From a virus (taxonomy: Duplodnaviria; Heunggongvirae; Uroviricota; Caudoviricetes): a stretch of 29,114 nucleotides of DNA. Position 1 is the first letter of the stretch; each line of letters starts with the position of its first letter. Shown here one piece after another: positions 11,293 to 19,445 of the stretch. Under the pieces are notes generated by a model. The model was not told where the DNA came from and ran no database searches. It saw only the letters and a program-made list of their open reading frames with translations. The stretch is taken from IMG/VR virus record IMGVR_UViG_2526164597_000011. One strand, given 5' to 3'. The position numbers were made by a program, and so were the translations under genes.

Positions 11293-11508
11293 TTACTCTC
11301 CTCTCGCAGCCTTACGCCTGTCTTCTTTAATCTTGAAATAAAGATTTGTCAGGTACGTCAGCAGGCCAAATACCAGGCTACCCAGCACACCTATTGCTGC
11401 CCACTGTGAGGGCGTGACTTTATCGAGCAGCTGTAAAAACCAGTAGCCAGCACTGCCTGCGGAGGTGCCGTAGGCAATGCCTGTTGAAATTTTGTCCATG
11501 GATTTCAT
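11293..11508 (-). CDS. Class II holin (phage 21 S21-type pinholin) with dual-start motif
   Basis: [71 protein letters not shown] is near-identical to the S21 sequence as remembered. Met1-Lys-Ser-Met4 gives the antiholin/holin dual start. GGAGGTGAGG RBS upstream. Confidence 0.85.
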
Positions 11509-11610: not shown

Positions 11611-11634
11611 ATAAAAAGCTCGCCGTAGCGAGCT
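11611..11634 (-). terminator. Putative rho-independent terminator downstream of the lipoprotein cargo genes
   Basis: Minus-strand hairpin AGCTCGC-TACG-GCGAGCT followed by TTTTTAT (plus strand ataaaaagctcgccgtagcgagct). Confidence 0.4.
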
Positions 11635-11759: not shown

Positions 11760-12155
11760 CTAACCTCGCATGTCAAAGCCAGATTTCTGAAAATCTCTGT
11801 AGACTTCCGGATTGTTGAAGGCCGGAAATTTGGCTTTATGAGCTGCGGACTTTATCGCTTCGCAATAGGCTTTATCACCGTTACTGGTAGATATTTTTAA
11901 CGCCGTGCCATCCTGAGAGAATTCCATATGCAACCTGCATTTTTTCCCTTTCCAGTTATGCGGCTCATCAAGTTTGGCATTAATTGCAGCTCTGATTCCC
12001 CGCGCTTGCGCCCCCCATTCATCCTGATCATCCCAGCGTCCTGAACTGCAACTACCTGTAGCAGTAGTTTTGTGGCAATCTGAAGGGTGTAAAGGTGTGC
12101 ATCCCGCAACAAAACCGACCCAAAAAGTCAACATAACGATTTTCTTTAATCCCAC
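11760..12155 (-). CDS. Lipoprotein with TolA domain-III-like C-terminal domain (paralog 2)
   Basis: Signal peptide plus lipobox (FVAGC, Thr at +2). C-terminal region KKCRLHMEFSQDGTALKISTSNGDKAYCEAIKSAAHKAKFPAFNNPEVYRDFQKSGFDM aligns with the cargo paralog at 12306-12734 and with the E. coli TolA C-terminal domain as remembered. Confidence 0.6.
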   Translation of the reverse strand: MGLKKIVMLTFWVGFVAGCTPLHPSDCHKTTATGSCSSGRWDDQDEWGAQARGIRAAINAKLDEPHNWKGKKCRLHMEFSQDGTALKISTSNGDKAYCEAIKSAAHKAKFPAFNNPEVYRDFQKSGFDMRG

Positions 12156-12305
12156 TTCTTGCTCCTCAATCCATTAAAATCTCAGCAATAGTAGTTGTTA
12201 CGTCCGCCACTGGCTCAGAGCTGACTATCCGCTAAATTTAGCTCAGTGCCGTAGTTGTGTCAGAACAAACCTAAGCCGAAACCGTTTATTACAAAACAAT
12301 AAATA

Positions 12306-12734
12306 TCAGGGTTTAAAATCCAGCACCCCATTTTGAAATACTTTATATACTTCCGGCGAAGGGGGGGCAGGTATATCAGCATTCTTTATCGCATTCATCG
12401 CTTCACGACATAAATCGAGGTCTCCACTTTCTCTTTTAACCTCCAGTAGAAGGCCATTCGGGGCCATATGCATTCTCAGTGTACACTCTTTTCCTGAATA
12501 CTTACTCGCATCCCCGAACTGTTTTTCGATGGCGCTCTTGATTTGATGGGCATACAGACGGATATCCTCACTAACATCAGAAGTACGTTCAGATGAACTC
12601 ACATACTGTGTCTCTATTGCTTTATCGGAGTAATATGATGTACGGTCATGATAATTTGTCGATACAGCATCAGTGCACCCGATAATAATCCCACTAATAA
12701 TCAACGTAAGAATTGATGCGCTACGAAAACCCAT
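12306..12734 (-). CDS. Lipoprotein with TolA domain-III-like C-terminal domain (paralog 1)
   Basis: Signal peptide plus lipobox (IIGC, Thr at +2). C-terminus QIKSAIEKQFGDASKYSGKECTLRMHMAPNGLLLEVKRESGDLDLCREAMNAIKNADIPAPPSPEVYKVFQNGVLDFKP closely parallels the TolA C-terminus (…QIKSAIESKFYDASSYAGKTCTLRIKLAPDGMLLDIKPEGGDPALCQAALAAAKLAKIPKPPSQAVYEVFKNAPLDFKP, from memory). Confidence 0.65.
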   Translation of the reverse strand: MGFRSASILTLIISGIIIGCTDAVSTNYHDRTSYYSDKAIETQYVSSSERTSDVSEDIRLYAHQIKSAIEKQFGDASKYSGKECTLRMHMAPNGLLLEVKRESGDLDLCREAMNAIKNADIPAPPSPEVYKVFQNGVLDFKP

Positions 12735-12851
12735 TTTTCCTCACATATGTCATATAGTAAAGGATTATATATACCGTTGTTTTGGACGCTCAAACAGCGA
12801 ATCAGATCAAATAAAACGCACATTTGTTAACATTTACACAAAGTCTGCGTG

Positions 12852-12872
12852 GGATATTCTGAAAGAATATCC
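12852..12872. promoter_or_regulatory. Perfect 21-bp palindrome (candidate operator) upstream of the lipoprotein cargo gene
   Basis: GGATATTCT-GAA-AGAATATCC, 9-bp arms with a 3-nt spacer, ~120 bp upstream of the lipoprotein start at 12734 in an AT-rich promoter-like region. Confidence 0.3.
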
Positions 12873-13267: not shown

Positions 13268-13621
13268 CTACCCCAGATGAGTAATCCGAAGTTCATCCAT
13301 ACCACAGGTCCTGGCTATTCTGTTGTACTCCTGAACAAGAGCAAATAATTCTGAATTAGCAACCATGAACTCATCGCAAACCCTCTGTATAGCATCACTA
13401 TTCAGAATAATAACGTCTCTTCCCGAAAGACGATCAGGAGCACAGAACAAAACTGTCAAACGGCTGAAGGCCTTTGCTCGTGCTGCATTGACTATATCAA
13501 TACGCTGCCTAAGGATGAAACACCCCGACGCCTCATCAATATTCACTCTACCCACACCATATGAATGATAAATATTTAATGCTGAAAAAACCATTAGACC
13601 GTATAACAAACACTCAATCAA
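13268..13621 (-). CDS. Hypothetical protein (possible gene remnant) between tRNAs and lipoprotein cargo
   Basis: 117-aa ORF with no recognisable motifs, followed by ~390 bp of non-coding sequence (12880-13267) without ORFs. May be a truncated cargo gene. Confidence 0.3.
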   Translation of the reverse strand: MIECLLYGLMVFSALNIYHSYGVGRVNIDEASGCFILRQRIDIVNAARAKAFSRLTVLFCAPDRLSGRDVIILNSDAIQRVCDEFMVANSELFALVQEYNRIARTCGMDELRITHLG

Positions 13622-13731: not shown

Positions 13732-13808
13732 TGGCGCGCTGTACTGGATTCGAACCAGTGACCGATTGCTTAGAAGGCAATTGCTCTGTCCGGCTGAGCT
13801 AACAACGC
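13732..13808 (-). tRNA. tRNA-Arg (anticodon UCU), phage-borne argN/argO-like
   Basis: Minus-strand sequence GCGTTGTTAGCTCAGCCGGACAGAGCAATTGCCTTCTAAGCAATCGGTCACTGGTTCGAATCCAGTACAGCGCGCCA. 7-bp acceptor stem (one G-U pair), anticodon loop CT-TCT-AA, T-loop GGTTCGAATCC, encoded CCA end. Confidence 0.85.
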
Positions 13809-13908: not shown

Positions 13909-13984
13909 TGGTGGCCCTTGCTGGATTTGAACCAGCGACCTGGCGATTATGAGTCGCTCGCTCTCACCACTGAGCTAAAGGGCC
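13909..13984 (-). tRNA. tRNA-Ile2 (anticodon CAU, lysidine-type; ileX/ileZ-like)
   Basis: Minus-strand sequence GGCCCTTTAGCTCAGTGGTGAGAGCGAGCGACTCATAATCGCCAGGTCGCTGGTTCAAATCCAGCAAGGGCCACCA, near-identical to E. coli tRNA-Ile2 as remembered. Anticodon loop CT-CAT-AA, encoded CCA end. Confidence 0.85.
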
Positions 13985-18095: not shown

Positions 18096-19445
18096 ATGAA
18101 CGCAGGATTACACTTCAGTGAGATCAGCAAAGAACAATTTGATATTTATTTTTACGGTCGCTCACCTTACCTTAAGACATTTTCTGAGGAGATACGCTGG
18201 TTTAAATATGAGGGGAATGGGATAACATTGTTATCCACAATAATCATATGCAATATTGATAAAGATTTTAACGCAATAGTCTTAGGTCGGGATTTAGATA
18301 AAAAATTCAGAGCAATAAACGTCTTGGCTTCATTTGATTCAATGGATGTCTTGCTTAATAATTTGAACGATGACATACCAAAGATGCTGGCGCAGCACCA
18401 AAATGGTACATTCATGCAAGGCGATGAATCATCCAAACCTTTTTCATTATTCTTGAGTAAAGTCCCAGAGAAAAAAAGGAATGTTTATATAAAAATGCTC
18501 CTCGAAGACCCTCTTCATTTCCCTGCATATATTGTTCTTGAGGAACTTGCATACTGGTTCAAAGATCCTGATGGAATATTTATAAGGGATTTTCAAAGTG
18601 ATGCATTTAATTCAAGGTTATTTGAATTATATTTGAACGCTGTATTTTATGAACTCGACTTTGAAATGAATAGAGAATACAATCAACCAGATTTTCTGCT
18701 ATCTAAATTTGGAGTGGAAATTGCTGTAGAGGCTGTAAGCATTGCTGAAGCAGAAGCCCCTCTTGAAAGAAAAGTCATTAACGATGAACAGATGGATGAA
18801 TTAAGAAAACATGTTCTAAATGTCATGCCTTTTAAGTTTGCAAGAAGTTTATTAAAAAAAGTCCGGCATTGCCCTGAGCCAGAGAAAGTTCATTACTGGG
18901 AACTCAACCATACAAAGAACAAACCATTTGTCATAGCAATGCAGGATTATTCAAAAAGAATGTCCATGGCCTTCTCAAGCGAAGCCTTGCATAGCTATTT
19001 GTACGGGATTGATATTGAGTCAGGCATTTCTATTGAAAGACATACAGATGAAAATAGAAGTATCAAGTCGAACTTTTTTGGCTCAGAACAAAATAATTAT
19101 GTTTCTGCCGTTTTACTCACTACTCAAGCAACCATACCTAAGTTTAACCGGATGGGAATTCTTGCAGGTGTAGAGGCGAGTGGATTCAAAGTGTACGTCA
19201 GTGGTGTTAAAACTGATCAGGATGCAGCCCCACATCCATTTTCAGCCGATGTAAGTGACCCTAACTATCAAGAACCATGGTGTACAGCCATGTACATGTA
19301 CCATAATCCAAACGCTATACACCCTGTTGACTATCAATTATTCCCAAATGTAGTTCATGTATTTAAAAAGGACGAACACTTTGAAGAGTACATTCCCAGA
19401 AACTATATTCTCCAATCGACTACTATGATATGTAAAACGGAATAA
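18096..19445 (+). CDS. AT-rich orphan protein of unknown function, 449 aa (candidate defence/cargo gene)
   Basis: Long ATG-initiated ORF with AAGGAA RBS 6 nt upstream. Markedly lower GC than the flanking phage genes. Only plus-strand gene inside a minus-strand block. No family recognised; weak PD-(D/E)xK-like stretch (NQPDFLLSKFGVEIAVEAVS). Confidence 0.7.
   Translation: MNAGLHFSEISKEQFDIYFYGRSPYLKTFSEEIRWFKYEGNGITLLSTIIICNIDKDFNAIVLGRDLDKKFRAINVLASFDSMDVLLNNLNDDIPKMLAQHQNGTFMQGDESSKPFSLFLSKVPEKKRNVYIKMLLEDPLHFPAYIVLEELAYWFKDPDGIFIRDFQSDAFNSRLFELYLNAVFYELDFEMNREYNQPDFLLSKFGVEIAVEAVSIAEAEAPLERKVINDEQMDELRKHVLNVMPFKFARSLLKKVRHCPEPEKVHYWELNHTKNKPFVIAMQDYSKRMSMAFSSEALHSYLYGIDIESGISIERHTDENRSIKSNFFGSEQNNYVSAVLLTTQATIPKFNRMGILAGVEASGFKVYVSGVKTDQDAAPHPFSADVSDPNYQEPWCTAMYMYHNPNAIHPVDYQLFPNVVHVFKKDEHFEEYIPRNYILQSTTMICKTE

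Follow-up and report, generated by a model that had tools for sequence, protein, structure and literature searches.

Domain III of TolA (TolA-III) is an entry handle shared by group A colicins and filamentous phages; for the phages it is the coreceptor, the primary receptors being conjugative pili, and IF1 uses I pili. Outer-membrane lipoproteins of the Cor, Llp and TraT type act at the cell surface by inactivating an outer-membrane receptor such as FhuA. Artificial periplasmic TolA-III, in work by Levengood-Freyermuth et al. in 1993, Click & Webster in 1997 and Riechmann & Holliger in 1997, reportedly renders cells tolerant of colicins and Ff phage, and cells infected by a filamentous phage are reported to acquire a g3p-mediated immunity to phage and colicins (Boeke, Model & Zinder in 1982). 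In the window analysed here, which is the whole 29,114-nucleotide (nt) stretch of the Caudoviricetes record IMGVR_UViG_2526164597_000011, two tandem genes of a lambdoid prophage, both on the minus strand and designated A and B, encode small lipoproteins that each end in a copy of TolA-III. We suggest that they might be outer-membrane-tethered decoys intercepting TolA-dependent colicins and the g3p of filamentous phages, a reading to which we assign a probability of roughly 45%.

Gene A (12306..12734, minus strand) is an open reading frame (ORF) of 142 amino acids (aa) with an ATG start, a signal peptide at residues 1-19, the lipobox I-I-G-C20 (signal region MGFRSASILTLIISGIIIGC, followed by T21-D22), a Ser/Thr/Tyr-rich, disordered linker at about residues 21-53, and TolA domain III at residues 54-142. 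Gene B (11760..12155, minus strand) is an ORF of 131 aa with a GTG start, a signal peptide at residues 1-18, the lipobox V-A-G-C19 (signal region MGLKKIVMLTFWVGFVAGC, followed by T20-P21), and TolA domain III at residues ~46-130. The two proteins are 29% identical over their whole length including the signal peptide (E 2e-18), and the paralogous tandem lipoprotein ORFs reported by a first-pass annotation of this DNA are indeed present, with the lipoboxes IIGC and VAGC and the Thr at +2 that it had read. Both N-termini combine a charged n-region, a hydrophobic core and a lipobox of the form [LVI][ASTVI][GAS]C within the first ~20-30 residues, as required for processing by signal peptidase II; the lipobox Cys is invariant across 24 aligned homologues, and under the E. 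coli +2 rule the Thr at this position in both proteins predicts sorting to the outer membrane. For gene B, the sequence supports the 131-aa start over that chosen by RefSeq at an identical locus, where B begins at an internal ATG and its 124-aa product loses the charged n-region of the signal peptide, because a Shine-Dalgarno sequence GAGGAG (12162..12167, minus strand) lies 6 nt ahead of the GTG and a plasmid homologue of B has ATG at the corresponding codon.

Profile searches and structure comparison agree on the likeness of both C-termini to TolA-III that the first-pass annotation had noticed. The Pfam model TolA_C (PF06519; gathering threshold 25 bits) matched A with 82.6 bits (E 2.4e-23) and B with 54.6 bits (E 1.3e-14), and the threshold was also passed by a variant of A from E. 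coli that makes Shiga toxin (STEC), by a plasmid copy of B and by a Klebsiella plasmid protein, all described below. When compared by phmmer with the TolA chains in the PDB, A aligned without gaps to residues 334-421 of E. coli TolA (E 5e-28; 52/88 residues identical, 59%) and B to residues 341-419 (E 5e-9; 27/79, 34%), and the alignments reproduced exactly the C-terminal strings that the first-pass annotation had quoted. The cysteine pair C363/C388, which forms an intradomain disulfide in TolA, is kept as C84 and C109 in A and as C73 and C98 in B, and is invariant in the 24 homologues. AlphaFold2 models gave a predicted local distance difference test score (pLDDT) of ~90 for residues 54-142 of A and >90 for residues 45-125 of B, with signal peptide and linker disordered in each, and both models show the alpha/beta fold of TolA-III, a three-stranded sheet packed on helices. 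With Foldseek, the model of A was closest to chain B of PDB 2x9a, the complex of TolA-III with g3p of the filamentous phage IF1 (root-mean-square deviation 0.6 Å, template modelling score 0.96), and that of B was matched to 3qdp (1.1 Å, 0.92), TonB C-terminal domains appearing as distant matches only.

Domains I and II of TolA were not found in A or B with the full-length TolA models, and the N-termini are lipoprotein signals instead. With either of two such models the match was confined to the last ~80-100 positions: scores for NF007065 (cut-off 213) were 107.8 for A and 53.7 for B; for TIGR02794 (cut-off 59.45), A passed with 75.6 bits by virtue of its C-terminal domain alone and B stayed below with 47.2. 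In strain IMT16316 the RefSeq label for A, given by the Prokaryotic Genome Annotation Pipeline (PGAP), is a pseudogene 'tolA, incomplete, missing N-terminus', and this label, together with the restriction of A's match to the final ~100 positions of the full-length models, would fit decayed and functionless fragments of a captured tolA. We regard such decay as scarcely credible: the ORF of A is intact and has a start codon, a Shine-Dalgarno sequence, a signal peptide and a lipobox of its own, variants with as little as 65% identity show the same architecture, A is annotated as a complete coding sequence elsewhere and occurs in 883/5,426 complete E. coli genomes, and the AlphaFold models are confident. 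The ratio of nonsynonymous to synonymous substitution rates (dN/dS) is 0.075-0.13 for B against its plasmid and chromosomal copies and 0.33 for A against the STEC variant, with changes mostly in the linker; judged by these values B is under strong purifying selection. The pseudogene label is best explained as an artefact, since a full-length model was matched to a short protein and since selection and architecture argue for an intact gene. On the sequence evidence, then, A and B would both be functional genes, and the RefSeq start of B and the pseudogene label of A both look wrong.

The surfaces used by TolA ligands are retained to different degrees in the two proteins. Colicin A binds at the beta-2 edge of TolA-III (L375-P380; K368, K379 and K396), while g3p, colicin N and the N-terminus of TolB contact the face on the other side and the C-terminal strand (PMC3365938). 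Of the three contact lysines of colicin A, protein A keeps two (K379 and K396) and protein B none, with E, S and H in their place; the C-terminal strand is kept in A (GVLDFKP, compared with APLDFKP in TolA) and has diverged in B. The mature N-terminus of B, C-APLHPSGCHKTTATGSCSSGRWDDQDEWG (residues 20-48; window 12012-12098), is almost invariant across genera and carries two extra cysteines (a Cys-loop) and an acidic W-x5-W stretch, a motif with a loose likeness to the Trp-containing epitopes by which colicins bind TolB. The two proteins may therefore cover different ligands, because A is a near copy of TolA-III and B lacks the colicin A lysines and has a conserved N-terminal motif of its own.

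As decoys, A and B would each hang a copy of TolA-III into the periplasm just beneath the outer membrane, on a linker of ~30 residues. Because they have neither an inner-membrane anchor nor the long helical domain II, they could not couple to the TolQR motor, so that a bound ligand would stay where it is without being drawn inwards. Group A colicins, through the parts that bind TolA, and g3p, through its N1 domain, would meet this tethered copy under the outer membrane ahead of the real TolA, and their capture would leave the carrier cell tolerant. In a lysogen the unit would be read from its own promoter, and after induction it would also be read by Q-modified polymerase from the late promoter. 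The TA53-107 segment of colicin A binds TolA-III with ~1.3 µM (PMC3365938), whereas the native TolA-TolB contact is weak (Kd 40-250 µM; PMC7066135), so that a decoy present in modest quantity could catch invaders and leave Tol-Pal largely undisturbed.

The organization of the locus is moron-like, so far as sequence features can indicate. Pfam and tRNA calls place it, as had been described, between the Q-tRNA block and the lysis genes, the order on the minus strand being Q, a terminator-like hairpin, two tRNA genes, a DUF3927 ORF, A, B, a P21-type holin, DUF1327, lysozyme and DUF2514. Gene A is preceded by AT-rich DNA (34% GC, the flanks of the unit having 33-34% and the window 47%), which bears out a further point of the earlier description, and this DNA contains a sigma-70 promoter-like site, TTGAGC-18-TATAAT (12764..12793, minus strand; consensus scan, 10/12 matches), ~30 bp ahead of the start codon of A, which is a candidate moron promoter. 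The -35 hexamer is preceded, at a distance of ~60 bp, by an inverted repeat, GGATATTCT-GAA-AGAATATCC (12852..12872), which had been called a perfect 21-bp palindrome; its two 9-bp arms are perfect, but the 3-nt GAA spacer is not palindromic, so that the repeat is an interrupted one. It is unique in the window, was equalled in 0/100 shuffles, and could form an RNA hairpin of -9.5 kcal/mol; having no U tract, it is not a typical terminator, and it is possibly an operator. No terminator was found between A and B. The terminator expected downstream of the unit was located at 11617..11634 (minus strand), between B and the holin gene, as an intrinsic terminator with a 7-bp GC-rich stem, a UACG loop and a U5 tail (-13 kcal/mol, z -2.9).

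A position between Q and the holin also invites the explanation that A and B are late antagonists of Tol-Pal, which would be expressed in dependence on Q, titrate the N-terminus of TolB or Pal off TolA and so loosen the outer membrane, with vesiculation or lysis as the outcome. The genes do lie within the late transcription unit that extends from the Q/terminator/tRNA block to the holin, TolB binds the face of TolA-III that is conserved in A, and periplasmic TolA-III is said to give a leaky tol phenotype. Against this, a promoter-like site and a terminator ahead of the holin belong to the unit itself, the prophage is already equipped with a holin, a lysozyme and a DUF2514 protein, titration through the very weak TolA-TolB contact would take much protein, and B-type genes occur on conjugative plasmids and at non-prophage chromosomal sites, where there is no lysis programme. 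We therefore consider a role in lysis quite unlikely. The decoy reading is favoured over a helper of lysis because the gene is found also after a plasmid relaxase, at non-prophage chromosomal sites and beside a defence gene in Serratia, as set out in the following.

The distribution of A and B was surveyed in 5,426 complete E. coli genomes and, by tblastn, in 50,697 phage records. Many E. coli chromosomes, and also phage mEp460_ev081, carry the 1.5-kb locus with 100% identity, and the complete A+B locus, whose recurrence the first-pass annotation had proposed to survey, is present in 769 of the genomes. Gene A is present in 883 of them (~16%), nearly always on the chromosome and counted as lying in the prophage Q-to-holin slot, and gene B in 1,263 (~23%, with plasmid copies such as that of pO157 counted), roughly 800 of which have B in the prophage Q-to-holin slot; 525 further copies of B, with ~88% nucleotide identity, are on plasmids. 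Among the phage records, only one, mEp460_ev081, carries A or B, and on this count we abandoned the view of A and B as typical phage genes. The descriptive part of the first-pass interpretation (paralogous lipoproteins with a TolA-III C-terminus, in a moron-like unit at a cargo slot) stands, and its functional proposals, a decoy for colicins and Ff phages or a late antagonist of Tol-Pal, are hypotheses. The family is not phage-specific, with copies on plasmids and at chromosomal sites outside prophages.

A variant of A, 67% identical, stands alone in an Stx-phage-like prophage, directly after tRNA-Ile/tRNA-Arg and ahead of a gene for a SASA-family carbohydrate esterase; we take this position to be the stxAB site and the esterase to be nanS-p. 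The DNA upstream of the window's A and that upstream of this STEC variant share no homology, and hence there is no conserved promoter or operator between them. A 'TolA-type' prophage gene in EDL933 was reported with 32-fold induction by ciprofloxacin (PMC11125564), which would speak for the late antagonist of Tol-Pal if the gene belonged to the TolA-III lipoprotein family. Among 60 sampled carriers of the A variant, none was labelled O157, so that a link to the EDL933 gene was not obtained there.

On plasmids, the relaxase gene is followed after 68 bp by a B-type gene on the same strand in IncK2/Z-typed and IncI1/B/O-typed plasmids and in pB7A_99, and pO157 has one beside a truncated nikB. An identification of the plasmid gene with yggA of R64 was ruled out, since yggA is on the other side of oriT. 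This arrangement, with the remnant on pO157, might suggest a conjugation factor that is co-transcribed with the relaxase operon and has an envelope role in DNA transfer, for instance in entry exclusion or in stabilising mating pairs, with secondary acquisition by prophages. However, the canonical IncI1 plasmid pESBL, in which NikB is directly followed by TrbC with nothing between, transfers without a gene at this position (PMC4288162), and prophages or chromosomes without transfer genes account for the majority of the A copies in E. coli and for many of the B copies, which makes a function in conjugation very improbable. A decoy on conjugative plasmids would have a rationale, because their pili are the primary receptors of the filamentous phages that need TolA-III. 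A third family, represented by a 144-aa TolA-III lipoprotein with the lipobox LITAC and 35% identity to B, is carried by Klebsiella IncFIB/FII plasmids; in pMR0617ctx of Klebsiella pneumoniae (locus L011, 3217-4246) its gene follows a same-strand thioredoxin-like gene at a distance of 47 bp, and the type was found in ~310 PLSDB plasmids, mostly from Klebsiella. The repeated occurrence as cargo of mobile elements (the prophage slot, I-complex, pO157 and IncF plasmids, Serratia, and a prophage edge in Citrobacter) was counted in favour of the decoy reading.

B-type proteins of 78-89% identity are also encoded by Citrobacter, Enterobacter, Serratia, Klebsiella and Raoultella. In Enterobacter the gene has an ordinary-looking, metabolic chromosomal neighbourhood, in Citrobacter amalonaticus it adjoins arsenic-resistance genes, in Citrobacter freundii it is at a prophage edge, and in Serratia it stands between nrdDG and an NsnA-like/HEPN gene pair, of which the NsnA-like member matches a PADLOC model (E 7e-58). 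On the Serratia marcescens chromosome (locus L017, 6957-8736) the B-type gene is inside an apparent defence island. Homology between the contexts of B is limited to the ORF and ~45 bp upstream, as would be expected for a self-sufficient single-gene cassette. In Raoultella terrigena (locus L019, 7140-7475) a 111-aa exported protein with a TonB_C match (PF03544, 31.3 bits, cut-off 24.6) is encoded ~0.7 kb from the B-type gene, an observation made in two assemblies of this one species; the protein amounts to a stand-alone TonB C-terminal domain, a copy of the other energy transducer's tip.

In an exhaustive profile search, 1.84 billion representatives gave 565 clusters at E <= 1e-3, and ~60 of the best 149 of these consist of lipobox-bearing proteins 105-170 aa long; those members of the small TolA-III lipoprotein clusters whose source is named come from Erwinia, Klebsiella, Enterobacter and Serratia. 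When the lipoboxes were read by eye, none of these ~60 small-lipoprotein clusters among the best 149 of 565 had Asp at +2, from which the +2 rule again predicts sorting to the outer membrane. Column statistics for 62 lipoprotein clusters and 53 full-length TolA clusters showed that both groups retain the fold core as well as the L-D-F-K motif at the C-terminus. A neighbour-joining tree of the ~90-aa domain was too poorly resolved on the question of a recent capture of A from host tolA and was not relied on.

This breadth might also reflect an accessory lipoprotein of envelope homeostasis, with which an outer-membrane TolA-III would bind TolB, Pal or another partner, tune the mobilisation or tethering of Pal and serve as general fitness cargo. 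Such a role is consistent with chromosomal copies that are conserved in Enterobacter, Raoultella and Citrobacter and subject to strong purifying selection, with the great variety of small TolA-III lipoproteins among Enterobacterales, with a fold core and L-D-F-K motif conserved as in true TolA, and with the nearly invariant mature N-terminal motif of B, suggestive of a specific partner. Yet the chromosomal sites differ between genera, so that the gene is accessory and not part of a core synteny, E. coli K-12 is not known to have it, which would make it dispensable for Tol-Pal function, and repeated capture by plasmids and prophages together with a defence-gene neighbour fits conflict genes better; we think an envelope role unlikely on balance.

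Several observations weigh against the decoy reading as well. Cells with periplasmic TolA-III were reportedly also leaky in the older work, which could point to a cost or to a different purpose. Full-text literature searches yielded no functional study of the family, and neither A nor B matched a defence model of PADLOC-DB 2.0 at E <= 0.01. The ordinary neighbourhood of the gene in Enterobacter fits a housekeeping function in the envelope equally well, and B, which has diverged at both known ligand edges, may bind no classical ligand. The promoter is a consensus match only, and expression in the lysogen is thus a prediction.

The remaining features of the prophage around the cargo slot are as follows. 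The antiterminator Q (PF03589; 14128..14949, minus strand) gave 182.6 bits with the Pfam model Antiterm, and between it and the slot come a region with the late promoter and a terminator and the two tRNA genes. The terminator-like hairpin after Q was found at 14047-14028 (minus strand) in a terminator scan. One tRNA gene (13909-13984, minus strand) was called Met (anticodon CAT) by ARAGORN, while RefSeq names the identical gene tRNA-Ile; it is possibly a lysidine-modified, ileX-type tRNA, as is usual downstream of Q in lambdoid phages. The other, also from the tRNA search, is at 13732-13808 (minus strand), between Q and the cargo slot. A 117-aa ORF (13268-13621, minus strand) between the tRNA genes and the DUF3927 ORF is a candidate gene that is not annotated at the identical RefSeq locus, and it had no match in Pfam or PADLOC. 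The lysis cassette opens with the P21-type holin (11293..11508, minus strand; Phage_holin_2_1, 122.8 bits), named essD in RefSeq at the identical locus, where the DUF2514 protein downstream of it is named rzpQ; the latter we take to be Rz-like. At a separate cargo site, a 449-aa ORF (18096-19445, plus strand) without a Pfam match is a full-length PADLOC match to the defence protein PD-T7-1 (E 4e-157). The presence of this catalogued anti-phage gene in the same prophage was counted for the decoy reading.

If A and B are decoys, they would represent a natural defence that works by mimicry of a periplasmic hub rather than by masking of a surface receptor, they would help to explain differences between strains in sensitivity to colicins and to Ff/If1 phages, and conjugative plasmids could thereby offset the phage risk created by their own pili. 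Since A is present in ~16% and B in ~23% of the complete E. coli genomes, an effect on bacteriocin- and phage-based interventions would be of practical concern. More tentatively, small outer-membrane copies of TolA-III might form a widespread uncharacterised class of immunity genes on prophages, conjugative plasmids (pO157, I-complex and IncF) and defence islands, which neutralise Tol-dependent colicins and pilus-specific filamentous phages by mimicry of the hub, with diverged paralogues widening the range; this more general proposal we regard with somewhat less confidence than the one for the locus itself. The stand-alone TonB C-terminal domain of Raoultella hints at the same trick for the Ton pathway. 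The resemblance to TolA is in itself not new, because RefSeq already names the TolA_C domain and the family exists as PHROG 5772, with no assigned function.

Compared with domain III of E. coli TolA (residues ~325-421; 1TOL, 1S62, 2X9A and 3QDP/3QDR), A and B have the fold and the cysteine pair in common, and A keeps the C-terminal strand on the side that is bound by g3p, colicin N and TolB. TolA as a whole has the anchor of domain I, domain II and the coupling to TolQR and the proton-motive force, whereas A and B have a lipoprotein signal and a short linker, with the attachment predicted to be reversed to the outer membrane. The engineered soluble periplasmic TolA-III, which is reported (in work by Levengood-Freyermuth 1993, Click & Webster 1997 and Bouveret 2002) to be uncoupled and to compete with native TolA, corresponds to what is proposed for A and B; it is, however, a soluble, overproduced and leaky laboratory construct, while A and B are natural, carry a signal for lipid anchoring, have diverged from host TolA and are borne by prophages and plasmids. 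Cor (phi80/N15), Llp (T5) and TraT (F) can be likened to A and B as small outer-membrane lipoproteins encoded by accessory genes in similar moron positions and protecting their carrier against phages, colicins or DNA from outside, but there is no sequence relation to A and B, whose Pfam matches are of the TolA/TonB type only and whose sole strong PHROG match is an unannotated family. These proteins block a surface receptor, and mimicry of a periplasmic hub would be a new mechanism in comparison. The g3p-mediated immunity of phage-infected cells, finally, would involve the same contact between TolA-III and the N1 domain of g3p in mirror image: there the ligand saturates the TolA of the host, whereas A and B would saturate the incoming ligand and leave the host TolA free.

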